A DNA stretch of 64,000 bases from an uncultured cyanobacterium (GCA_903935205.1 CAIZQU010000152.1:24404-88403); one strand, 5' to 3'; counted from the stretch's first letter, positions 37,671-50,684 are shown. Numbers and translations: made by a program. The notes: a model not told the origin generated them from the sequence alone.

Positions 37671-38405
37671 ATGAGAGGGGCCCTGACGGCCGGTCTGGCG
37701 GTGCTTGTGGTCACCCTGATGGCGCTGTTCGGGCCCCTGGTGGGCCTCTCCCCCTGGATCACCAGCCTGCTGGTGCTGTTCGGCCTGGGCGGCCTGAGCC
37801 TCGATGCCGCACGCTTCGGAGGGCGCGGCGGCCATCTCCTCGCCGAGGCCCTGCCCGGCGGACTGGGACGCCTGCGCCGCATCGCCCTGCACGAGGCTGC
37901 CCATGCCCTGGTGGCGGCCGAAGAGGGGGTGGCCGTGGCGGCGGTGCATGTGGGAAGCCTGGCCTGCCTGCGGGCGGGTCTGGCGGCCGGCGGCACCACC
38001 GTGCTCGACCCCCCGGCCAGCGCCCGCCTTCCCCTCGAGGACCTGCGCCGCTGGAGCCGGGTGCTTCTGGCGGGCATGGCGGCCGAGACCGTGATCTATG
38101 GCTCCAGCGAAGGCGGCGCCGACGACCGCTCCCTGCTGGGCCGCCTCTGGGGGCTCTCGGGCCAGGAGGTGTCCACGGCCCAGATGGAGCAGCGCCGAGC
38201 CCGCCGGGAAGTGGAGCAGTTTCTTCGCCAGCGGCGGCCCCAGCTCGAGGCGGAGGCCGACCGGCTCGCCCGCAGTGCTCCCCGACTGGGCTGGCCCCAA
38301 CCAGGGGGATCGTCAGCGTCGGACTCCCCCGCCGGCGACGCTGGCTCCGACCCGGATGGCCCGGATCGCCCCGCTGCCGGGCCGGCCCGCGTTCCAGAAC
38401 CATGA
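37671..38405 (+). CDS. M41-like Zn-peptidase domain membrane protein
   Basis: HEAAH (HExxH), LAGMAAE, GGADD. Confidence 0.75.
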   Translation: MRGALTAGLAVLVVTLMALFGPLVGLSPWITSLLVLFGLGGLSLDAARFGGRGGHLLAEALPGGLGRLRRIALHEAAHALVAAEEGVAVAAVHVGSLACLRAGLAAGGTTVLDPPASARLPLEDLRRWSRVLLAGMAAETVIYGSSEGGADDRSLLGRLWGLSGQEVSTAQMEQRRARREVEQFLRQRRPQLEAEADRLARSAPRLGWPQPGGSSASDSPAGDAGSDPDGPDRPAAGPARVPEP

Positions 38406-39862
38406 CGCTGCTGCAGCTCGACTGCCCCACCGGTCTGGCCGGCAACATGCTCCTGGCCGGTCTCCTCGACCTCGGGGTGGCCGAGGAGGTGGTGCACCGT
38501 GCCCTTGCCTGCCTGGACCTGGAGGATCGCTACCGGCTCCAGCTGGAGGTGCGCCGCAGCCATGGTCTACGGGGCCTCCATCTGGCGGTGGAGAGCCTTG
38601 AGCCCGATCCCCCCCACCGGCACTGGGGGGACCTGCGCCAGCAGCTGGCCGACTCCCGCCTGCCACCCGATCTCAAGGAGCGGGTGATCGCCGTGTTCAG
38701 CCTGCTGGCGGAGGCCGAGGCGGCGGTCCATGGACAGCCCGCCGAGGCGGTGCACTTCCATGAAGTCGGCGCCCTCGATGCCCTGGTGGACGTGGTCGGG
38801 GTGTGTGCCGCCCTGCGGGAGCTGCGGGTGCAGCGGCTGATCTGCGGCATTCCCCCCGCCGGCCATGGCAGCGTCAGCACCGCCCACGGATTGCTGCCCC
38901 TGCCGGCGCCCGCGGTGCTGGAGATCGCCCGCCGCCGCGGTCTGCCCCTGGGCAGCAGCGAGGGCTTTCCCGCCGGGGAGCTCACCACCCCCACCGGGCT
39001 GGCCCTGATCGCCTGCTGGGCGGAGCGCTTCGGAGCCCCCCCCGCCGCCGTTCCCCTGGCCCTGGGGGTGGGCCTGGGCAGCCGCCAGCTGGACCGACCC
39101 AACCTGCTGCGCTTCACCCTGGCCCGGCCCCTGCAGGACGACACCTCCCAGCCCCGGCTCCCCGGCGATCCGCAGCCACGGATTCCAGGGGAGGGGGGGC
39201 TCCCCTGGCTGGATCCCCCTGGGACGGAGCCGGCCGAGACGGGTGCGGCGGCAGCGGCCCAGGTCGGCGGCGACGGCGAAACCGCCGAGCCCCTGCTGCG
39301 ACAACAGGCCCAGATCGATGATGCCAGCGCCGAAGAGCTGGCATTCCTGGCTGAGGCCCTCCGCCAGGCCGGCGCGGTCGAGGTGTTCAGCCAGGCGGTG
39401 CTGATGAAGAAGGGGAGGCTGGGAACCCTGGTCACCGCCCTGATGCCCCCGGCCCTGGGACCGGCCTTGCGGCAGGTCTGGTGGCGCCACAGCGGCAGCC
39501 TGGGGGTGAGGGAGTCACTGCAGCGCCGCTGGCGCCTGCCCCGCCAGCTTGAGAGGGTCAGCACACCCCTCGGGGACGTGGGGCTGCGCTGGGTCTCCCT
39601 GCCGGACGGTCGGCGCCGGGCCAAGGCCGAATACGAGGATCTGGCGACCCTGGCCCGTCGGCATGGCCTGGGGCTCGATCAGATCCGCCAGCTCGTCACC
39701 GAGGCCGTGGCAGGCAGGGATCTCGCCGGGGGGAGCGATCGGGATCACGCTGGGCCGGCTCCCGAGGTTGCGGATCCCGGTGAGCCGGTTCCAGATCGGG
39801 CGGGAGCCGGCTGCGGCCCAGCTCAGGCTGGGCTGGGCCCGGAGGGGCTGGAAACGCCATGA
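38402..39862 (+). CDS. larC: Nickel insertion protein LarC family
   Basis: GLAGNMLLAGL, HFHEVGALD, PAPAVLEI, ELTTPTG, MKKGR, KAEYED. Confidence 0.92.
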   Translation: MTLLQLDCPTGLAGNMLLAGLLDLGVAEEVVHRALACLDLEDRYRLQLEVRRSHGLRGLHLAVESLEPDPPHRHWGDLRQQLADSRLPPDLKERVIAVFSLLAEAEAAVHGQPAEAVHFHEVGALDALVDVVGVCAALRELRVQRLICGIPPAGHGSVSTAHGLLPLPAPAVLEIARRRGLPLGSSEGFPAGELTTPTGLALIACWAERFGAPPAAVPLALGVGLGSRQLDRPNLLRFTLARPLQDDTSQPRLPGDPQPRIPGEGGLPWLDPPGTEPAETGAAAAAQVGGDGETAEPLLRQQAQIDDASAEELAFLAEALRQAGAVEVFSQAVLMKKGRLGTLVTALMPPALGPALRQVWWRHSGSLGVRESLQRRWRLPRQLERVSTPLGDVGLRWVSLPDGRRRAKAEYEDLATLARRHGLGLDQIRQLVTEAVAGRDLAGGSDRDHAGPAPEVADPGEPVPDRAGAGCGPAQAGLGPEGLETP

Positions 39863-41022
39863 TCCCTCCCATGAATCACCGCCTGCGCGCCCGTCTCCAG
39901 GCCTTCACCGCCCGCCTCAGCAGCGGAGCCCAGGCCATCCGGGGCGCTCTGGCCGGAGGCCTGGCCCGTCCCAGCGCGCCAGCCGCAACCGATCGAGATG
40001 ACGGCCCGCGACCGTTGCGAATGCGTTCCTGGAAGCCCTCCCTGCCGGGCGGTCTTCGCCCCTGGATCACCCTCGCCAGCCTGGCCTTTTTGTTCGCGGC
40101 GCTGTTCAGCCACGGCCGCCAGCTGCTGCAGCTGGGAGTGGACGCCCAGGGTTGGCTGTGGCTGCTGATCGGCCTGGGCCTCTGCCTGCTCAGCGTGGTG
40201 ATGAACGGGGTGGCCTGGTCGGTCCTGCTGACCTGGCTGGGCCAGCGACCGCGTCGTCTGGAGGCGGTGGCCCATTACATGGTCACCAACCTTCGCAAGT
40301 TTCTACCCGGCGGCATCTGGCACCTCAGCACCCGCCTCCAGGATCTGCGCCGGGGTCAGGCCGGCCTGCCAACCCCGATCGATGGCGGCAGCGCCCTGCT
40401 GGCGGTGGTGCTCGAACCGCTGCTGGCGGCCAGCGCCGCCCTCGCCCTGGCTGCCGCCGGCGGTTGGCAGGGAGGTCTTGGACTGCTCGGCCTGCTGCCC
40501 CTGGCCCTGCTGCTGCCCCGCTGGCTGGCGCCACTGCTGGGACAGCTGGAGCGTCGCAAGGCCAGGGAGCTGCAGCGCCAGGATGCGATCGGCGCGGCTG
40601 GGCCACCGGCGCTCGACCCTGCGATCGCCACCACCCCCGTGCTGCCGGGCTATCCTTGGAAGCCGCTGCTGGCGGAAGCGGCCTTCGTGCTGCTGCGCTT
40701 TGCCGGGTTTGCCTGCTGCGTGTGGGCCTTCGATCTGCAGCTGGCCCTCGCCTGGCCCATCTGGCTGGCGGGCTTCGCCCAGGCCTGGACCGTGGGGCTG
40801 GTGGTGCCTGGGGCCCCCGGCGGTCTGGGGGTGTTCGAGGCGGCACTGCTGCTGCGCCTCGGCGGCCTGGTGCCGGCGCCCCAGCTCCTGGCCGTGGCCC
40901 TGAGCTATCGGTTGATCACCACCATCGGCGACCTGCTGGCTGCCCTGCTGGCCGACCTTGACAGCCGCCGCCCCCTGCCGGCCCCGGCAGGCCCCGATCA
41001 AGCTGGCAGCACTTCTCAATAG
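39859..41022 (+). CDS. UPF0104 / lysylphosphatidylglycerol synthase TM (flippase-like) protein
   Basis: KFLPGGIWH, PGAPGGLGVFEA, YRLITT. Confidence 0.85.
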   Translation: MIPPMNHRLRARLQAFTARLSSGAQAIRGALAGGLARPSAPAATDRDDGPRPLRMRSWKPSLPGGLRPWITLASLAFLFAALFSHGRQLLQLGVDAQGWLWLLIGLGLCLLSVVMNGVAWSVLLTWLGQRPRRLEAVAHYMVTNLRKFLPGGIWHLSTRLQDLRRGQAGLPTPIDGGSALLAVVLEPLLAASAALALAAAGGWQGGLGLLGLLPLALLLPRWLAPLLGQLERRKARELQRQDAIGAAGPPALDPAIATTPVLPGYPWKPLLAEAAFVLLRFAGFACCVWAFDLQLALAWPIWLAGFAQAWTVGLVVPGAPGGLGVFEAALLLRLGGLVPAPQLLAVALSYRLITTIGDLLAALLADLDSRRPLPAPAGPDQAGSTSQ

Positions 41023-41055
41023 CCCTTACTCTTGCGAAGTGCCGGGGGAGCCAGG

Positions 41056-41523
41056 GTGAAGGGTCTGCGCAGCAGCCTGCATGAGCGGGGCCAGCGCCTC
41101 ACCCCCCAGAGGGAGCGGGTGCTGGCCCTGTTCGAGGAGATCGGCGCGGGCCGCCACCTCAGCGCCGAAGACGTGCACCAGCGCCTGCGCAGCACCCAGA
41201 CCGCCGTCGGTTCGACGAGCCCATCGGGCGGCGTCTCCCTGGCCACGGTGTATCGAACCCTGCGGTTGCTCAGCTCCCTGGAGCTGCTGCAGGAACTGGA
41301 ACTTCCCGATGGCGGGCGCCGCTTCGAGCTGGCGGGGGATGCCCAGCATCGCCACCACCACCATCTGGTCTGCGTGCGCTGCGGGCGGACCGAGGAATTT
41401 GAGGATGGAGCCGTGTTGTCGGCGGGTGCGAACGCCGCCGAGGCCCATGGTTTTCAGCTGCTGGAGTGCGTGCTGAATGTGCGCTCCCTCTGCCCCAGCT
41501 GCGCTGCCGCCACCAGCCCCTGA
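41056..41523 (+). CDS. fur: Fur family transcriptional regulator
   Basis: RLTPQR, HLSAEDV, SLATVYRTL, HHHHLVCVRC, CPSC. Confidence 0.92.
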   Translation: MKGLRSSLHERGQRLTPQRERVLALFEEIGAGRHLSAEDVHQRLRSTQTAVGSTSPSGGVSLATVYRTLRLLSSLELLQELELPDGGRRFELAGDAQHRHHHHLVCVRCGRTEEFEDGAVLSAGANAAEAHGFQLLECVLNVRSLCPSCAAATSP

Positions 41524-41746
41524 TCCAGCCTGGAGCCAGACCCAGCCTGGTCCCAAGCCCATCGGGATCCCGCAGGCACCAGCGCGAGCGGGATCCCCAG
41601 CGCTGGCAGCACCGCCCCTGGCGGTCGGCGCCGATCGCTAGGAGCTTGTTGCGCGTGGCCGCAATGGCTGCAAATCCCTGGGGAGATCCCGCGACACAAC
41701 GGAACAGGATCTCCCATGGATCTCATCCGCATTGCGATTGCGGCGT

Positions 41747-41762
41747 CGTGCCAAAAGGCAGA
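41747..41762. promoter_or_regulatory. Candidate Crp-family operator CGTGCCAAAAGGCAGA
   Basis: Shares a 13-bp core with 45585-45600; CRP-like spacing. Confidence 0.55.
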
Positions 41763-41972
41763 TGGATGGCACGGCAGCAGATCTTGCGATGACGGTGCAG
41801 AGATGTGCTTGATGCCCTTTGTCTCAGGATGAGTCCGCGATCGGCGCCGCTTCGGGTCCGTCATTGTTCAGGGCCTGGCCTGTCGACCCACGCGCAACAG
41901 GCTCCTAGTGGCGACCCCAGAGGACGCCCTGTTTGTTGCGAACTGCTCGCAGCAGCCAGAGAACCAGCTAAG

Positions 41973-41991
41973 ATTGCGAGTCATTCGCAAT
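41973..41991. promoter_or_regulatory. Fur-box-like 9-1-9 palindrome ATTGCGAGTCATTCGCAAT
   Basis: 8 of 9 arm positions pair; ends 24 bp before the Crp-family ATG, downstream of fur. Confidence 0.6.
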
Positions 41992-42014
41992 AACGCGCCC
42001 TAGTCGCGAGGCCG

Positions 42015-42614
42015 ATGCAGTTCCGCTTCCTGCCCGAACGTCCCCTGGCCGCCCTGCGCCTTTCCGCCGGCCAGTGCGTGCTGCTCGATCCCGCCGCCCG
42101 CAGTGGCGCTGCCAGCTGTCTGGAGGTGCTGGAGGGCATCGCCCGGGTCTATTGCCCCTGCGAGGAAACCGAAGGCATGACCCTGGCCTTTCTTCAGGCC
42201 GGCGACCAGCTGCGCACTGATCGCCTCTGCAGCGAGGGGGTCTGCGTCGAAGCCCTCACGCCCCTGAGCTTCCGCAGCGATGCCGAACCGTTGCCGGGAC
42301 AGGGGTTCGATCCGGTCAATGAGTGGACCCTTCAGTTGCTTCGCATCCGCCATCTGGGCAGTGCCGAACAGCGGCTCCACGCCCTGCTGGCCCTGTTGGT
42401 GCGGCGTCTGGGCCACCGCCGCGGTGCCTGGTGCGACCTGCCGTTCCGACTCACCCACGAACGCATCGCCGAACTGATCGGCACCACCCGGGTCACCACC
42501 ACCCGGCTGATCTCCCGCATCCGCCGGGAGCAGCTGCTGCTGGTCCCCAGCGGCGAAACCGGCCTGAAGCTGGCGCCGGCCCTGGTGGAGAACGCTCCCC
42601 TGGCGGCGGCCTGA
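42015..42614 (+). CDS. Crp/Fnr family transcriptional regulator (IdiB-like context)
   Basis: LAFLQAGD beta-roll, LTHERIAELIGTTRVTTTRL helix-turn-helix. Confidence 0.9.
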   Translation: MQFRFLPERPLAALRLSAGQCVLLDPAARSGAASCLEVLEGIARVYCPCEETEGMTLAFLQAGDQLRTDRLCSEGVCVEALTPLSFRSDAEPLPGQGFDPVNEWTLQLLRIRHLGSAEQRLHALLALLVRRLGHRRGAWCDLPFRLTHERIAELIGTTRVTTTRLISRIRREQLLLVPSGETGLKLAPALVENAPLAAA

Positions 42615-42732
42615 GCCGCGGTCGGCCCGCCGGAGACCTCCACAATCCCCCGGTCCGGGTCTCGGCCGTGCCTGACCCAGGCCCGTCCCGATCAGGTCTG
42701 GCCCCGGCTCTGGGCCGTGATTCCGAACGGGG

Positions 42733-44400
42733 TCAGCGGCGACGCTCCAACTGGGGCACCAAAGCCAGGGAGGCCACCAGACCGAGGCCCAGGATCAGGG
42801 CCGCCGGAATCAGGGCGGCACCGAGCCGTTCATCGCTGGCGTATTGATACACCCGCACCGACAGGGTGTCGCAATCGAAAGGACGCAGGGCAAAGCTCAG
42901 CGGCAATTCCTTCACCACATCCACGAACACCAGCAGGGCGCCGACCAACAGCGGCCCCCGCAGCAACGGCAGATGGACGCGGCGCAGCACCGCCCACCAG
43001 CCGCAGCCGAGGCCGGTGGCCGCCTCATCGAGGCTGGGGGGGAGACGCTCCAGAGCGGCATCCAGGCCCTGGCGGGACACCGCCAGAAAGCGGTCGGTGT
43101 AGCCCCAGAGCAGCAGCAGCAGGGGCGGCAGACCGAGGGGCGCCCCGAACAGCAGCAGGGCCAGGGCGAGCACAGCGCCGGGCACGGCGTAGCCCATGCC
43201 GGCCGCAAAGGCCAGACGGCTCAACCAGGGCACGGCAAACCAGCGACGGCCCAGGGCCAGCACCAGGCCCGCCATGGCGGTGAACAGGGCCGCCGCCAGG
43301 GCCAGGCCAAGGCTGCGCAGGCCCAGGGTCAGCAGGTCGGACCCAGCCTCGTCACCCAGCTGGTCTCGGCTGAACACCATCCAGAGCAGGGGCAGGCCGA
43401 GGCTGAGCAGCGGGGGCACCAGGGTGATCAGCTGGGCCAGCCACGCCCGCCAGCCACGCAGGGGCCAGGGCGTCGCCGCCTGGCTGTCGCCACCGCTGAG
43501 CCAGCGACGGCTGCGCCGCCGCAGCTGCCGCTCACACCCCACCAGCAGGCTGACCATCACCAGGGTGATCAGGGCCAGGCCAACGGCACCGCGGGGATCG
43601 GCATCGCTCTGCCAGCGCTGCAGGATCGTGCCGGAAAGCGTCGGAACCCCGAGCAGTTCCACCGCACCGAGTTCATTGACCACCTCCATCCCGGCCAGGG
43701 CCACCCCGGCGCCGATCGCCGGGGCGGCCATCGGCAGGGCCACGCGCCGGAACCCTCCCCAGGGGCCGACCCCGAGGCTGCGGCAGGCCTCGATCTGCCG
43801 CAGGCCGCCGGCGGAGAAACTCTCGGTGGCGAGCAGAAAGACATAGCTGTAGGTGCCCAGCACCAGCACCACCGCAGCCCAGAGATCGCCATGGAAGCGC
43901 ACACCGACACGGCTGCCGCTGTCGATCAGGGTGGCGGCCAGCAGGTACGGGGGGGCGGCCAGGGGCAGGAGCTGGGCGATGCGGAGCAGGCGGCGCCCCG
44001 GAAACGAACAGGCGGCGGTGAGCCAGCCACTGGCGGTGCCCAACAGGGCCGAGCCGAGTCCAACCAGCAGCAGCAGGGCCAGGGTGTGGCCCAGGGCCTC
44101 GCCGCCGCCGCTGGCGCCGGAGCTGGGGATACCACCCAGCAGGGCATAGGGGGCGAGACCAAGGATCGGCAGCAGGGCGAGCAGGGCCACCGCCAGCAGC
44201 AGCAGCAGCAGCGGCCAGCGACCGGAGCGGGCCAGGCCGGCGAGGCCGGCGGCCACACCACGGCCGGATCCGGTGCCGCCCGACGCGCCACCACCGGATC
44301 CGCCACCGGATCCCGGTTCGCGATCCCCGCCCAGCGCCACCGGATCAGGCCGACGGCGCTGGGTCGGATCCCGGGGGCTGCGGGTGGTCATCAGGGTCAT
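42733..44400 (-). CDS. futB: Fe(III) ABC transporter permease
   Basis: Duplicated permease halves: EACRSLG...LPMAAP, DEAATGLG...VHLPLL, KELP, TLSVRVYQYASDE. Confidence 0.92.
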   Translation of the reverse strand: MTLMTTRSPRDPTQRRRPDPVALGGDREPGSGGGSGGGASGGTGSGRGVAAGLAGLARSGRWPLLLLLLAVALLALLPILGLAPYALLGGIPSSGASGGGEALGHTLALLLLVGLGSALLGTASGWLTAACSFPGRRLLRIAQLLPLAAPPYLLAATLIDSGSRVGVRFHGDLWAAVVLVLGTYSYVFLLATESFSAGGLRQIEACRSLGVGPWGGFRRVALPMAAPAIGAGVALAGMEVVNELGAVELLGVPTLSGTILQRWQSDADPRGAVGLALITLVMVSLLVGCERQLRRRSRRWLSGGDSQAATPWPLRGWRAWLAQLITLVPPLLSLGLPLLWMVFSRDQLGDEAGSDLLTLGLRSLGLALAAALFTAMAGLVLALGRRWFAVPWLSRLAFAAGMGYAVPGAVLALALLLFGAPLGLPPLLLLLWGYTDRFLAVSRQGLDAALERLPPSLDEAATGLGCGWWAVLRRVHLPLLRGPLLVGALLVFVDVVKELPLSFALRPFDCDTLSVRVYQYASDERLGAALIPAALILGLGLVASLALVPQLERRR

Positions 44401-45458
44401 GGCCAGCCGGCATCGCGCATCAACCGAACGGCCTCGCCATTGCGGGCGCCGAGCTGCTCGATCGGAACACCATCGCCATGGACCGGCCCGAAGCTCTGGA
44501 GCACCGGATCGCTGCCGCTGCCCCGCAGGGGATATTCATGATTGGCCTGGGCATAGCCCACGCCGCCACCCTCCGGTGCAGCGAGAAACTCCAACAGGCG
44601 GCGCGCGGCCTCAGGGTGGCGGGCATGGCGGGTCACGCCGGCACCGCTGACATTGACATGGGCCGGATCCGGCAGCACCACCTTGACCCCTTGCAGCAAC
44701 CGCTGATCCTCGCTGCCGGCCTCGCCGGAGAGCATGCGGGCCGCGTAGTAGCTGTTGACCACTCCGACGCCGCACTCCCCCCGGGCCACAGCCCGGGCCA
44801 GGGTGGTGTCGGAACTGAAGAAGGGGGGGCGGAGATTGGCGATCAGGCCCTGAAGCCAGCGGCGGGTCTGGGCCTCCCCATGGCGGATCAGCTGGTCGGC
44901 CACCAGGGACTGGTTGTAGACGCTGCGCCCATTGCGCAGGCAGAGCTTGCCGCGCAGCTCCGGCCTGGCCAGGTCGTCGTAACGGCGCACCAGGGCGGGA
45001 TCGACCAGACGGGGATGGATCACCACGGCCCGCACCCGACGGGTGAGGGCGGTCCAACGGCCGGCGGTGTCGCGCAGCTGCGGCGGCACATCGCGGCGAA
45101 TCGCCTCGGAGTTCAGGGGTTGAAACACCCCCTGATCGGCTGCCCGCACCAGACGGGCGGCATCGACGAGCACCAGCAGGTCGGCGGCCGTGCCCTTGCC
45201 CTCGCTGCGCACCCGCTCGATCAGGGCGTCATCCTTCCCCTCCAGCACCTTGACGCGAATGCCTGTGGCCGCGGTGAAGCGCCCGTAGAGGGCCTGATCG
45301 GTGTTGTAGTGGCGGCCGGAATACACCCCCAGGGTCACCGTGGCGGCGGAATCGGGCCCGGGTCGGCAGCCGGCGACCAGGGGCAGCAGGCCCAGACCCA
45401 CCAGCAGCAGCGGGCGGAGGCGACGGGGCAGAGCGGCGAACAAGGGCGACAGGGGCAC
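44397..45458 (-). CDS. futA: Fe(III) ABC transporter substrate-binding lipoprotein (FutA/IdiA)
   Basis: VYSGRHYNTD, ADLLVLVDA, YNQSL, VNSYY Tyr pair, HVNVSG, NHEYP; lipobox VAGC; start may be 45503. Confidence 0.93.
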   Translation of the reverse strand: MPLSPLFAALPRRLRPLLLVGLGLLPLVAGCRPGPDSAATVTLGVYSGRHYNTDQALYGRFTAATGIRVKVLEGKDDALIERVRSEGKGTAADLLVLVDAARLVRAADQGVFQPLNSEAIRRDVPPQLRDTAGRWTALTRRVRAVVIHPRLVDPALVRRYDDLARPELRGKLCLRNGRSVYNQSLVADQLIRHGEAQTRRWLQGLIANLRPPFFSSDTTLARAVARGECGVGVVNSYYAARMLSGEAGSEDQRLLQGVKVVLPDPAHVNVSGAGVTRHARHPEAARRLLEFLAAPEGGGVGYAQANHEYPLRGSGSDPVLQSFGPVHGDGVPIEQLGARNGEAVRLMRDAGWP

Positions 45459-45584
45459 GGGCGGCCGGCACCTCAGGGGCCGAGGATCCAGGGGAACAGG
45501 CATCCGTGGGCCGGCAGGGACGGGGGGACAGCCGGAAGCTACCCAGGCGGGGCGGGAGGCCCCGGTACCGATGCTGCTGGAGAC

Positions 45585-45600
45585 TGTGCCAAAAGGCACA
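45585..45600. promoter_or_regulatory. Perfect palindrome TGTGCC-AAAA-GGCACA upstream of futA
   Basis: TGTGC-N6-GCACA has the spacing of the CRP site TGTGA-N6-TCACA. Confidence 0.6.
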
Positions 45601-46175
45601 ACAACGGCAGGCACCACCTGCGGCGGGCGGGCCGCGCCTGCTGGCTTGCGGCCGATCCCGGGCAGCCAGCAGCCCCGGGCCCCGAGAAAGGACCTGGAGG
45701 CTGCCAGGCGGAGCGGGCCAGGGCCCCAGGAACTGGGGCGCTCAGGGCTGCGGGAACCCATGGGCTATGGGGCCTGTCGGGTCGCTCCCGGCAACTTCGG
45801 CAGGCGCTGACCTGCCAGGTGCTGCCGGGCCGAGGAGGAAGCTGTGGCCCAGAGGTCGGCAGACCCGGCCCGAACAAAGCCGGTCCCGAACAAAGACAGA
45901 CCCGATCGGGCGCCGATCACGGCCTCATGCTCCGAGGCAGGGCATCAGGAGCAGCTCGGCACCCTCATCTCGAGATCTGTTGTGGCGCCATGATTCTGAC
46001 CATTGGCGCAGCCTGGCCATTGGCACAACGCCACGATCTCGATACGGATAAGACCCAGATGAGACCCTTGTCCGCGCCAGGGCGGGATCGCCAGCTGGAT
46101 CCGGGGCGATACAGCAACGCGCTACAGGCCCCTGAGCGGGCGATCCGCCTGGCGGCGATCCAGAGGCTCCGCCGC

Positions 46176-47975
46176 TCAGGGGCGCCGCTGCTGGACCAGG
46201 CGGCGCCGAAGGCGGCGGCTCCAGGCCAGGGCCATGGCGCTGCCGGCCAGGGGCAGGGGGCCAGGCACGTTCTGGATGTCGGTGTTCATCCGCACGATCA
46301 CGGCATGGGGATCGCTGAGGTTTTTGAGGCCCGTGCCATCGATCACGCTGGCCGGCAGCACATGGGCCAGCTCCCAGGTGCTGGTGATTGGGTTGCGACG
46401 GATGAGGCCAAGCCCGGGGCAGCTGCCCTCCGCCGCATGGCTGACGGTGAGCGGGAAAGGTCCGCGCAGGGCCATGTAGATGGTGTCCCCTAGGGGTGAG
46501 ACGGTGCCCAGGTCCGGGGTTGGATCGTTGGAGCGGGCAGTGCCCAAGGTGGTGCCACAGGCGCCGCTGCTGGTCAGGTCGTAGCTGGAGCTGGGATGGA
46601 GCACATCCCAAGGCTCGTGCATGCTGAAGACCTCAACATTATTGCGGACGCGATCAAAGATATGCAGTGCATCATCGACCAGAACCATGCCATGGGCATC
46701 GCGGTTGTTGGCGGGGATGAGACTGCCATTGTCCGGATCCCCCCAGACAGCGACAGGAGCCGGCGTGTCGGTGGCGTTGAAAGCAGGAGCAGAGGGATAG
46801 TCGCGACCAAAACGATAGACCGTGAATTCAGAGATACCTGGTCCCGATGTACCTGTAGCCAGATGCATGTAACCCTCCGCTTCAACGCCACCACAACCGG
46901 CGGCGTTGATCACATTTTTGGTGTAGTCGGCCACGATCGCCATCGGCGTTGCCTGAACATCGACCACGAACATGCCGCCGCCGCCGAGGGTGGCATAGGC
47001 ATGACGACCATTGCTGGATGGGATCGGGCAGATCACCGTGTTGAGGGGCCGCGATGGATCCTGCTTTGGCGTGTTGCTCGGCGTGAACAGGGATTGGTTG
47101 TCGGGTACGCTGCCATTGATGCGGCAACCGATGTTGTTACCAGGATCCATGTCGACGGCAATCGGCTGACTGAGAATGCGCCCAGAACCACCGACGAAAT
47201 CCAAGCTCGCACTGGCGTTAAAAACAAATTCCTGGATCTGCCCGGCCCCATTGCGCACCACATCAACCCGCTCCAACATGCGTCCGTTCTGGTTGGCCAC
47301 GATCAGTGAATCGCCATTGGGCGTCCAGAAGCTCATGTGGTTCTGGCGGCCGGTGCTGGTGCCGGTGGTGCGAAACAGACAAACCGATCGCTTCGAGCTG
47401 CCATCGACGATGCCCAGGTGGCCAGAGGCCACAAAATTCAGGGCCATATAGCGGCTATCGGGGCTGGTCAGGATGCCGTGCATCCGAGATACGGGTGCCG
47501 CGGTCGTGGCCATGGCATCCGGGAACAGATCGGTGCTCACATCGAGAACCAACGGATTATTGATCGGCGTGGGAAGGTCGAGATCGGCTGAATCGTAAAT
47601 GCGGATCTTGCCGCCGTGTGTGCCATTCGGCGAGGCCAGGGAGATGCCCTGGGTGTTGGCTTGATCGCTCAACCAGACCTCATAGCTTCCCCTGGTTCGG
47701 GGTACGGCAGCCAAGGAATGGATCAGGTCGAAGACGGAACCCCCTGCCGAGTTGTCGTGGTGATCGGAGCCGCCGGCATCATCCGTCCGGCCCAGCTGGG
47801 GATCCAGCAGCGTGATCCAGAAGGCCAGCAGCAAGCGGGAAAGCGTGCGGCGCTGAGCCTTGCGCGACCGCAACGGCAGCTTCAGCTGCGGAGAGTTGGG
47901 GTGGGCAACCCCACCAGGATGGGCGCAAGAATCAAGGGCATGTGACGTCATGAATCCAATCCCGATGGCTGACAT
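46176..47975 (-). CDS. Secreted beta-propeller-like protein with PEP-CTERM-type sorting signal (no. 4)
   Basis: Blade-like repeats (HGILTSPDSRYM, HMSFWTPNGDSL, HGMVLVDDALH), C-terminus VPGPLPLAGSAMALAWSRRLRRRL. Confidence 0.75.
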   Translation of the reverse strand: MSAIGIGFMTSHALDSCAHPGGVAHPNSPQLKLPLRSRKAQRRTLSRLLLAFWITLLDPQLGRTDDAGGSDHHDNSAGGSVFDLIHSLAAVPRTRGSYEVWLSDQANTQGISLASPNGTHGGKIRIYDSADLDLPTPINNPLVLDVSTDLFPDAMATTAAPVSRMHGILTSPDSRYMALNFVASGHLGIVDGSSKRSVCLFRTTGTSTGRQNHMSFWTPNGDSLIVANQNGRMLERVDVVRNGAGQIQEFVFNASASLDFVGGSGRILSQPIAVDMDPGNNIGCRINGSVPDNQSLFTPSNTPKQDPSRPLNTVICPIPSSNGRHAYATLGGGGMFVVDVQATPMAIVADYTKNVINAAGCGGVEAEGYMHLATGTSGPGISEFTVYRFGRDYPSAPAFNATDTPAPVAVWGDPDNGSLIPANNRDAHGMVLVDDALHIFDRVRNNVEVFSMHEPWDVLHPSSSYDLTSSGACGTTLGTARSNDPTPDLGTVSPLGDTIYMALRGPFPLTVSHAAEGSCPGLGLIRRNPITSTWELAHVLPASVIDGTGLKNLSDPHAVIVRMNTDIQNVPGPLPLAGSAMALAWSRRLRRRLVQQRRP

Positions 47976-48241
47976 TTCCTTCTAAACAAGCCGATCCAGC
48001 ACCGCCATCACGATCCCAGGAATCACACGTCCCACCATGGACCCAATCTGACCGCCGCCAGCACCAGGGCCCGGAACGACGGATCCACGCCCGGCCTGCT
48101 CCCGCGGCGCCACTGGCTGCCGGTGGGGCCGGATCTGAGGCTTGGCGGCGCCGCAGGCCGACGGTTTTGGTGGGTTGCGCTACCGGGATTGCCATGGCCA
48201 CAGCCATAGCGTGAGCCCATCACCTGGCCTGGGGCCGGCCC

Positions 48242-49660
48242 ATGGATCATTTCTACCTGGAGCTGGATCCGCCTGCGGAGGTCCTGGCGAGCTGGCCCCA
48301 TGTGGTGATCGTGGGTGGTGGCTTCGCCGGGCTCAAGGCCTGTCACGCCCTTGCCCGTCAGCCGGTGCGGGTGACGCTGATCGACAAACGCAATTTCAAC
48401 CTCTTCCAACCCCTCCTCTACCAGGTGGCGTCGGGCCTGGTCTCTGAAGCGGATGTGGCCTCGCCCCTGCGCCAGATGGTCGGCCACGCCCCGAACATCC
48501 AGATCCTGCTCGGTGAGGTGGTGGCGATCGATCCGGATCAGCGGCAGGTGGTCTTCAACGACCGCCGCTACGGCTATGACCAGCTGATCCTGGCCACCGG
48601 CTCAGGCAGCACCTACTTCGGACGCGAGGAGTGGCGGCCCCTGGCGCCACCGATGAAGATCCTCGAGCACGCCGATGAGATCCGCCGCAGGTTGCTGATG
48701 GCCCTCGAGGAGGCGGAGCAAAGCATCGATCCCCAGCAGCGCGCCTTCCTGCAGACCGCCGTCGTGGTGGGGGCTGGCCCCGCCGGCTGCGAACTGGCCG
48801 GCTCCCTGATCGAACTGATGCACCGCGCCGTGCAGCGCGATTTCAAACAGCTGCGCCAGCAGGACTGCCGGGTGGTGTTGGTGGATCCGGTCGACCGGGT
48901 GCTGCCGACCATGGCCGAACCGCTCGCCGCTGCCGCCTCCCGCTACCTCGCAGCCGCTGGCGTGGAACTGCGGCTGGGGCAGCGGGTGGAGGGCATCGGG
49001 CCCGGGCTCGTGCAGCTCAACGGCACCGCAGGGGAGCAGCGGCTGGAGGCGGCCACGATCTGCTGGACGGCAGGGGTGCGGGCCTCGCGGCTGGGGCGGC
49101 TGCTGGCGGATGCCACGGGTGCCGCCGTGGATCGGGGCGGGAGGCTGGTGGTGGAACCCGATTTCTCCCTCCCCGGCCATCCGGAGATCCGGGCCGTGGG
49201 CGATCTCTGCTGTTACACCCACACCCCCGAATCCACCCCCCTGCCGGGCCTGGCCGGACCGGCGGTGCAGGCCGGCGGCTGGGTGGCCCGCGACATCCTG
49301 GCCAGGCTGCGGGGCGAGACGAGCCCCCCGTTCCGCTGGTTGGACCTGGGCAGCATGGCCGTGATCGGGCCCTGGTATGCGGTGGCCGATCTGCGCGGCT
49401 TGCATCTCACCGGCCTGGCGGGCTGGCTGGTGTGGGCCCTGGCCCATCTGGCCTTCATCCCCGACACCGAAAACCGCATCGCCCTGTTCAGCAAATGGAT
49501 GTGGCAGATCGCCACCCGCCAACGCACGGCGCTGCTGATCACCGGCCGCCCGGACCAGCACATCGGCGTTGATGTGGGTCTGTTCCGGGCGATCCCGCCA
49601 CCCCCACCACAGGAGCAGGCCACACCGCCACCTCCGGCGGAAGCGGGCCGGTCCCAGTAA
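48242..49660 (+). CDS. ndb: Type II NADH dehydrogenase
   Basis: VVIVGGGFAG, FQPLLYQVA, VVGAGPAGCELAG, WTAGV, DLGSMAVIG. Confidence 0.92.
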   Translation: MDHFYLELDPPAEVLASWPHVVIVGGGFAGLKACHALARQPVRVTLIDKRNFNLFQPLLYQVASGLVSEADVASPLRQMVGHAPNIQILLGEVVAIDPDQRQVVFNDRRYGYDQLILATGSGSTYFGREEWRPLAPPMKILEHADEIRRRLLMALEEAEQSIDPQQRAFLQTAVVVGAGPAGCELAGSLIELMHRAVQRDFKQLRQQDCRVVLVDPVDRVLPTMAEPLAAAASRYLAAAGVELRLGQRVEGIGPGLVQLNGTAGEQRLEAATICWTAGVRASRLGRLLADATGAAVDRGGRLVVEPDFSLPGHPEIRAVGDLCCYTHTPESTPLPGLAGPAVQAGGWVARDILARLRGETSPPFRWLDLGSMAVIGPWYAVADLRGLHLTGLAGWLVWALAHLAFIPDTENRIALFSKWMWQIATRQRTALLITGRPDQHIGVDVGLFRAIPPPPPQEQATPPPPAEAGRSQ

Positions 49661-49730
49661 CCAGCCCAGGGCCACCCCGATCCCTCAGCCGGCGGGTCAG
49701 GATGGCACCGGCCCCTTGCCGCCTTGCCGC

Positions 49731-50684
49731 GTGGAACGGATCCGGACGGCCTGGGCCCTGTTTCAGGGCCTGTTGCTGGAGGCCCTGCCCTTCCTGCTCC
49801 TGGGCGTGGCCATCGCCACCCTGGCCCGGCTGGTGGCACCCCAGGGCCTCTGGATGCGCCGCCTGCCCCGCCATCCCCTGCTCGCCCCCAGCACCGGCGC
49901 CCTCCTGGGCTTCGCCCTGCCGGCCTGCGAATGCGGCAACGTGCCGGTGGCCCGTCGCCTGCTGGCCGGAGGCGCCCCGCTCGGCACCGCCCTGGGCTTT
50001 CTGTTCGCCGCCCCGGTGCTCAACCCGATCGTGCTGCTCAGCACCTGGGCCGCCTTCCCCAACCAGCCCTGGCTGCTGCTGGCCCGCCCCCTGGGAGCCT
50101 TCCTGCTGGCGCTGCTGCTGAGCGGTGTTCTGGGCCTGCTGCCGGAATCCAGGCTGCTGGTGCCGGAGCTGCTGGCCCAGCGCCGCCTCTCCCAACCCCT
50201 GAGCCAGGTCGGACTGCTGGAGCGCCCCTCCGGGCTGGTCGGAGCACCCCTGCCGCCGGCGCCGGCCCCCGAGGCCCGGGCGGGCTGGGGGGCCGAGCTG
50301 GAGCACGCCAGCGGCGAGTTTCTCAATCTCGCCAGCCTGCTGCTCCTGGGCTGCGCCATCGCAGCGGTGGTCCAGACCTGGTTGCCGCGCAGCTGGCTGC
50401 TGTCGGTCGGCTCCGATCCCACCCTCTCGATCGTGGCCCTGATGCTGCTGGCCCTGGTGGTGTCGGTGTGCTCCAGCGTCGATGCCTTCCTGGCCCTCGG
50501 TTTCGCCGCCCAGGTCAGCCCTGGCGCCCTGCTGGCCTTCCTGCTGCTGGGACCGGTGGTCGACCTCAAGCTGGCCGGGCTGTTCACGGTGCTGCTGCGC
50601 CCGGCTGCCATCGCGATCACCGCCGCCACCGCCCTGCTGGCGGTGCTGCTGATCGGCCAATGGGTCAATCTCTGGTTGCTGTGA
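49731..50684 (+). CDS. DUF318-family permease
   Basis: EALPFLLLG, PACECG, AAPVLNP, SVCSSVDAF, GPVVDLK. Confidence 0.88.
   Translation: MERIRTAWALFQGLLLEALPFLLLGVAIATLARLVAPQGLWMRRLPRHPLLAPSTGALLGFALPACECGNVPVARRLLAGGAPLGTALGFLFAAPVLNPIVLLSTWAAFPNQPWLLLARPLGAFLLALLLSGVLGLLPESRLLVPELLAQRRLSQPLSQVGLLERPSGLVGAPLPPAPAPEARAGWGAELEHASGEFLNLASLLLLGCAIAAVVQTWLPRSWLLSVGSDPTLSIVALMLLALVVSVCSSVDAFLALGFAAQVSPGALLAFLLLGPVVDLKLAGLFTVLLRPAAIAITAATALLAVLLIGQWVNLWLL

Follow-up and report, generated by a model that had tools for sequence, protein, structure and literature searches.

Two 16-bp words of closely similar sequence flank a putative iron-uptake block in a 64,000-nucleotide (nt) stretch of DNA from an uncultured cyanobacterium (hereafter the window; CAIZQU010000152.1:24404–88403, from a genome of 3.82 Mb in 169 contigs), and the locus raises the question of whether they are two copies of one operator. 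The block consists of a gene for a Crp/Fnr-family regulator, futB and futA. One word, TGTGCCAAAAGGCACA at 45585–45600 (site 2), lies upstream of futA, the other, CGTGCCAAAAGGCAGA at 41747–41762 (site 1), lies upstream of the regulator gene, and an exact 13-mer, GTGCCAAAAGGCA, is common to both. The initial annotation of this DNA took the two words for binding sites of the local regulator, which would thereby control its own gene and activate futAB. Our analysis divides the pair: we regard it as probable that site 2 is a genuine Crp/NtcA-type operator of futAB and that site 1 is a chance match within a repeat. The features concerned are as follows.

41747–41762, plus strand: site 1, CGTGCCAAAAGGCAGA, a small hairpin within a repeat, without an orthologue in relatives
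42015–42614, plus strand: gene for a Crp/Fnr-family regulator of 199 amino acids (aa; protein P0001), recognized by family matches and an NtcA-like helix, TTRVTTTRL
42733–44400, minus strand: gene for a futB-type ATP-binding cassette (ABC) permease with duplicated BPD_transp_1 domains
44397–45458, minus strand: gene for a futA/idiA-type periplasmic Fe(III)-binding lipoprotein, recognized by solute-binding-protein families
45585–45600, strand not assigned: site 2, TGTGCCAAAAGGCACA, a conserved, predicted Crp/NtcA-type operator upstream of futA

The letters of the two words were checked and their 13 identical bases are exact. As annotated, both words are intergenic, with 127 nt from site 2 to the likely start of futA (45458) and 253 nt from site 1 to the ATG of the regulator gene (42015). 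We place the true start of futA at the GTG at 45458 because a lipoprotein signal ending in LVAGC ensues and the relatives align from there; the end of the longer open reading frame at 45761 is probably not the start. Orthologues of futA were found in 36 of 41 relatives. Site 2 is a perfect dyad, TGTGCC-AAAA-GGCACA, with the core GTG-N8-CAC, in which the GT and AC elements are 10 bp apart. The CRP-like geometry TGTGC-N6-GCACA that had been ascribed to both 16-mers thus describes only site 2, since site 1 ends in GCAGA; its core is GTG-N8-CAG, and GT...AG fails the dyad requirement of the GT-N10-AC core.

The evidence that sets site 2 apart is its conservation. We retrieved the futA loci of 40 relatives and aligned the sequence upstream of the gene (alignment A3, 19 genomes). 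All 18 congeners have an orthologue of site 2 at the corresponding position before futA, with the general form nGT(A/G)-N8-(C/T)ACn. GT and AC are invariant in A3, against an identity of only ~32% in the sequence around them. The third base of the half-site varies between A and G among species, as seen in the orthologues themselves: TGTGCCTTTTGGCACA in the window's own genome and in G010, TGTGACCAAAGGCACA in G009, CGTAACGAATGTCACA in G003, GGTGACAAATGTCACC in G012, CGTGCCATTAATCACA in G001, TGTACGTTTTGCTACA in G018 and CGTAAGCATTGATACG in six genomes. When each relative was scored with a matrix built without it, the site reached 11.9–18.8 bits in 17 of 18 relatives, against at most 8.3 bits for the next-best match. 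The remaining relative (G024) is represented by an extract that lost the left half of the site, which is whole in one of the alignments. The conservation extends beyond the genus, since strong single sites (16.7–22.4 bits), such as TGTGACATTTGTCACA and CGTGACATTTGTTACC, occur with unchanged spacing in complete genomes of other genera; the futA site of small AT-rich genomes is degenerate. Judged from this conservation, site 2 is very probably a site at which a Crp-family protein binds. Full-text literature searches returned no description of this futA site.

A genome-wide motif scan and phylogenetic footprinting, two of the checks proposed along with the initial annotation, both separate the two words. 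With a matrix built without the window's own clade, site 2 ranks fourth among ~7.6 million genome positions (16.5 bits) and site 1 only 133rd (9.6 bits); over the matrices used, site 2 scores 16.4–16.5 bits and site 1 9.6–9.9 bits. Footprinting recovers the futA site in all congeners, as described above, and no orthologue of site 1 in any relative. Genome-wide, 16 sites match GTR-N8-YAC with at least 14 bits, a set that the matrix cannot separate from NtcA sites. The third-ranked match, CGTAACTTATGTAACA (G000 C116:17146, 16.8 bits), lies 136 nt upstream of a gene for a 99-aa plant-type [2Fe-2S] ferredoxin and could belong either to NtcA or, as a second target, to the regulator. Another locus with both motifs (C114, ~88.8–89.1 kb) is a low-GC, coding-like stretch and was judged a compositional chance.

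The surroundings of site 2 are consistent with a promoter. Two further elements lie between it and futA.

45536–45541, minus strand: TAGCTT, a −10-like TAnnnT hexamer, its start 52 nt from the centre of site 2
45565–45578, minus strand: AGCAGCATCGGTAC, a semi-conserved proximal block (alignments A3 and A7) with its centre ~21 nt downstream of site 2, at about −42

A TA(A/G)nnT hexamer starts 51–53 nt from the centre of the site in 17 of 18 genomes, with both T positions invariant. If TAGCTT is the −10 box, transcription would start near 45529 and the dyad would be centred at about −63.5. No full sigma-70 promoter was found upstream of futA and a −35 box is not recognizable there, which fits dependence on an activator. 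Together, the fixed distance to the TAnnnT hexamer and the lack of a −35 box suggest activation from about −63.5. The proximal block is palindromic in some relatives (TGGCAGCATTTGCCAG in G004), and in small-genome genera the conserved unit resembles GATAC-N8-GTATC and spans both the dyad and the proximal block; the latter may be a weaker, degenerate second site. Taken as a mechanism, a dimer of the regulator would bind the 16-bp dyad nGT(A/G)-N8-(C/T)ACn with its A/T-rich centre upstream of the futA-futB operon, and the bound protein would activate, rather than repress, transcription of futA from about −63.5, presumably in dependence on iron. The weaker proximal element near −42 possibly acts alongside site 2.

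Site 1 has a different context. It lies inside one of two copies of a ~270-nt repeat in this part of the window.

41638–41907, plus strand: repeat copy A, ~270 nt, resembling a miniature inverted-repeat transposable element (MITE), with termini CTAGGAGCtTGTTGCGCGTgGCC ... CGCGCAACAGGCTCCTAG, delimited by alignment, BLAST and profile
45836–46133, minus strand: repeat copy B, diverged and with two small insertions (nhmmer E = 2e-51)

A profile built from 31 full-length copies was used to scan the whole genome with nhmmer and gave 76 matches of 65–95% identity, 55 of which span nearly the whole model and 44 of which are complete end to end. The exact 13-mer occurs in only two of these 76 copies; at the position of site 1 the commonest forms in the family are GTACCAAAGGGCA (eight copies) and GTGCCAAAGGGCA (six copies). 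The fold of the repeat is strong (z = −4.4), and within it the 13-mer forms a small UGCC-AAAA-GGCA hairpin. No copy of the repeat was found in the 40 relatives, the two closest included, nor does it precede the regulator gene of G010, the product of which is 96% identical. Copy A thus appears to have been inserted just upstream of the regulator promoter in this lineage only. Site 1 is a stretch from the interior of a dispersed repeat peculiar to this lineage and not a conserved operator. Site 2 does not share this origin. Copy B occupies sequence between site 2 and the gene upstream of it and leaves site 2 uncovered, and with all nhmmer filters off no repeat copy was found over 45585–45600, the nearest ending at 45836; the idea that site 2 belongs to a degenerate copy was ruled out by this unfiltered scan. 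The two inverted copies bracket the regulator-futB-futA block, a proximity that is not significant at one copy per ~50 kb.

In several respects the repeat behaves as a MITE. It is 270 nt long, non-coding and strongly folded, it occurs in dozens of dispersed copies whose presence varies between close relatives, and its complete copies end in ~25-bp inverted repeats of the form C(T/C)(A/G)GGAGCCTGTTGCGCGTAGCC ... GGCTCC(T/C)(A/G)G. Correia elements of Neisseria and Nezha of Nostocales are bacterial examples of this class. The repeat differs from MITEs in that it has no definable target-site duplication; the C(T/C)(A/G)G termini on both sides belong to the palindrome, and the flanks hold no consistent duplication. 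In addition, a search for an autonomous partner among 91 terminus-like matches gave no inverted pair 400–5000 nt apart, although one could be missed in an assembly of 169 contigs, and an Rfam scan of 38000–50000 at E values up to 1 returned two chance matches of microRNA type and nothing at either site or at the repeat. We therefore describe the repeat as MITE-like and leave it unclassified.

Does the identity of 13 bases between a repeat and an operator call for a biological explanation? The window contains 897 repeated 13-mers, against ~435 in second-order Markov simulations. When copy A was shuffled, it had on average 1.6 exact 13-mers in common with the rest of the window and at least one in 67% of the shuffles; the real copy A has two. 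Chance sharing of this length is expected, and therefore the identity between sites 1 and 2 requires no biological explanation. Across the genome the exact 13-mer occurs three times, namely, in site 2 and in the two repeat copies, and the third occurrence has a flank of ~30 nt in common with site 1 and not with site 2. The 13-base identity of site 1 with site 2 is a chance match. It is unremarkable only because any repeated word in 64 kb could have been picked. More generally, short words common to two loci of a GC-rich genome are poor evidence for shared operators, above all when they lie in dispersed repeats.

The regulator gene has conserved promoter elements of its own, downstream of copy A.

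41936–41990, plus strand: regulator promoter region with two palindromes, TTGCGAACTGCTCGCAG (41936–41952) and TTGCGAGTCATTCGCAA (41974–41990)

In 14 genomes the gene is preceded by a conserved sigma-70-like promoter with −35 TTGCAA, an 18-nt spacer and −10 TAGGTT (here TAAGAT, 41969–41974). Two palindromes of the type TTGCGA-N5-TCGCAA overlie its −35 and −10 elements; they too are conserved in the 14 genomes, starting 39 nt apart in the relatives and 38 nt apart in the window. In its exact form the TTGCGA-N5-TCGCAA palindrome is unique in the genome, at the regulator promoter, and a matrix scan gave 13 matches of at least 13 bits. The palindrome may be a GC-shifted Fur box or a dedicated operator; its uniqueness would speak for the latter over a Fur box of general use. 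The regulator gene would be controlled through these two elements and not through the motif found at futA. Indeed, upstream of the regulator gene in nine relatives with convergent layout no match to GTR-N8-YAC was found (best at most 5.6 bits), and a strong site precedes the gene only where the intergenic region is common to futA. The autoregulation through this motif that had been proposed for the window is not supported and finds no counterpart in those nine relatives.

The regulator itself is compatible with the type of site seen at futA. Its closest solved relative is NtcA (structures 2XGX and 8H40), and its DNA-reading helix, LTHERIAELIGTTRVTTTRLI, is nearly identical to that of NtcA (TRVTtTRL vs TRVTvTRL). 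The recognition helix (TRVTTTR) is invariant in 14 congeners and 17 further genera and stays unchanged with either form of the local futA site, GTA...TAC or GTG...CAC. Therefore, the A/G alternation in the third position reflects tolerance and not the changed specificity bases that the initial annotation had read into the half-sites. In the sensor domain, C47-P-C49 and C72-x4-C77 are invariant across 17 genera. C140 of the protein is nearly so, and a paralogue with 42–44% identity keeps none of these cysteines. Family scans gave no cyclic nucleotide (cNMP)-binding or NtcA-type match for the N-terminal domain. Judging from the cysteines, the regulator may be an iron-sulphur (Fe-S), metal or redox sensor. 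It is present in 103 of 121 genomes of the family at 52–83% identity. Its linkage to futB and futA is kept across the genus and in most large-genome genera and lost in small-genome genera; most genomes have the convergent layout, and four (G004, G007, G013 and G018) have a divergent one with a common intergenic region. On this synteny and helix identity, we take the neighbouring regulator, with moderate confidence, as the protein most likely to be bound at site 2. The proposal that the local regulator binds here is thus upheld as a prediction for site 2, which combines conservation, linkage and an NtcA-type helix, and it does not extend to site 1. Likewise, the comparison with an IdiB/idiA-like activator site at futA draws support from the conservation, the fixed spacing and the synteny.

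Other explanations of the two words can be weighed on the same data. If both were operators of the local regulator, autoregulation and activation of futAB would follow from one motif, and the arrangement has some appeal: 13 identical bases occur at two intergenic places flanking the block, the word is rare, with three copies in the genome, and in the four genomes with divergent layout the futA site could in principle act both ways. However, site 1 belongs to a 76-copy repeat of which no relative has a copy, it departs from the invariant AC and reaches only 9.6–9.9 bits, and it lies at least 170 nt upstream of the conserved elements of the regulator promoter. Given also the nine convergent-layout relatives that lack such a site, and a common 13-mer expected by chance, we consider joint operator function very improbable, and with it the shared operator as originally proposed. 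Still less credible is that site 2 acts as RNA, as a hairpin (GUGCC-UUUU-GGCAC) that would, for example, terminate or stabilize an upstream transcript. In this genome it could form a perfect 6-bp stem with a 4-nt loop, and a weak terminator-like hairpin lies just upstream (45621–45607), but orthologous sites such as GTAAGCATTGATAC have no comparable stem and show no compensatory changes. Only the GT and AC cores are kept, no T-run follows, and the fixed spacing to the −10-like hexamer points to a promoter element.

A more substantial alternative is that NtcA, and not the neighbouring regulator, binds site 2 and couples iron uptake to nitrogen status. In Synechocystis, futA1 and futA2 respond to nitrogen starvation (PMC5714215), which counts in its favour, and a degenerate form of the site survives in genomes with unlinked regulator and futA genes. 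However, NtcA binds GTA-N8-TAC, and GTA is strictly conserved in the most strongly NtcA-activated promoters, where the site is centred at −41.5 (PMC5714215), whereas the own clade and several genera have GTG...CAC at futA and the predicted centre is about −63.5. Synteny with a regulator of the same helix type is conserved, moreover, and the sites are strongest where the genes are linked. We regard binding by NtcA in place of the regulator as unlikely. Several points nonetheless weigh against our preferred division into an operator at futA and a chance match in the repeat, or against parts of it. The genome encodes a true NtcA (helix STRVTITRL, at C75), and most relatives have a perfect GTA-N8-TAC at this position, so that NtcA could bind the site alone or together with the regulator. 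The pairing loses generality with the small-genome genera, which have unlinked regulator and futA genes and a degenerate site. The start of futA transcription, the position at −63.5 and activation as such are predictions from sequence. Finally, it is a priori unlikely that one particular repeat should match this one particular operator, and site 1 may be bound weakly.

Comparison with known systems places site 2 among familiar operators. IdiB of Synechococcus elongatus PCC 7942 was reportedly described by Michel and colleagues in 2001 as a Crp/Fnr-family activator of the futA homologue idiA, and the window has in common with that system a Crp/Fnr-family regulator gene beside futA/idiA and a dyad upstream of it. 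In G028, which we take to be S. elongatus (L067, C1 ~1.3587–1.3619 Mb), a 208-aa Crp-type gene with the helix TRVTITK, presumably idiB, is convergent with a futA/idiA homologue bearing a twin-arginine (Tat) signal, and a GTG-N8-CAC palindrome, GGTGTGCCAGCACACC, lies ~50 nt upstream of the ATG of this homologue. The regulator of the window is similar to the G028 protein only in the helix-turn-helix domain (40% over 55 aa), and is therefore not a demonstrable orthologue of IdiB; it differs, furthermore, in its four invariant sensor-domain cysteines. In class I promoters of E. coli CRP, TGTGA-N6-TCACA is centred at −61.5. Site 2 resembles these in being a 16-bp dyad, with one TGTGA half-site in G009, and in having its centre some six helical turns before the presumed start, whereas the half-site is mostly not TGTGA and the regulator has V where CRP has E181 and shows no signature of cyclic AMP binding. 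With NtcA the likeness comprises the near-identical recognition helix and the dyad geometry, in which GT and AC are the key bases and the centre is A/T-rich. The differences are the third base of the half-site, freely A or G here, the predicted centre at about −63.5 instead of −41.5, and the regulator gene, which is a separate paralogue whose N-terminal domain, as noted, lacks a cNMP or NtcA-type match. The window's own site does not have the GTA-N8-TAC near −41.5 of NtcA operators, although many relatives have GTA...TAC. Overall, the operator would be of an already known NtcA/CRP kind, to which site 2 adds a putative member.

Iron limits picocyanobacteria (Prochlorococcus, Synechococcus and Cyanobium) in large parts of the ocean and in lakes, and, to our knowledge, their iron regulators beyond Fur are poorly defined. 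A deeply conserved futA site and an adjoining conserved, cysteine-rich, NtcA-like regulator are a concrete candidate for a regulatory pair, and a site type common to NtcA hints at cross-talk with nitrogen regulation. The regulator itself offers the more novel lead, being part of the picocyanobacterial core and carrying four invariant sensor-domain cysteines. A wider proposal, which we offer as a tentative and rather doubtful possibility, would make it a branch of the Crp/Fnr family that senses iron or Fe-S, belongs to the core of all picocyanobacteria and switches on Fe(III) uptake while its own gene is under the double palindrome. Such a protein would combine the four cysteines (C-P-C and C-x4-C) with an NtcA-like helix that reads GT(A/G)-N8-(C/T)AC sites, perhaps bound as tandem dimers at about −63.5 and −42, and the repeat family would scatter weak, half-matching sites through the genome, one of them beside the regulator's own promoter.

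Two minor observations concern the neighbourhood of the regulator gene in relatives. A Dps-like gene (FHWNVTGPMFNTLHLMFME...) adjoins futA in relatives with divergent layout (L016 and L017; G013 and G004); in S. elongatus the neighbourhood is dpsA-idiB-idiA. Among other relatives (G005, G006, G014, G015, G016, G020, G022 and G024), many assemblies break in the regulator gene and have two identical partial copies of it, and G024 has two full copies; the gene apparently borders on a duplicated region there.

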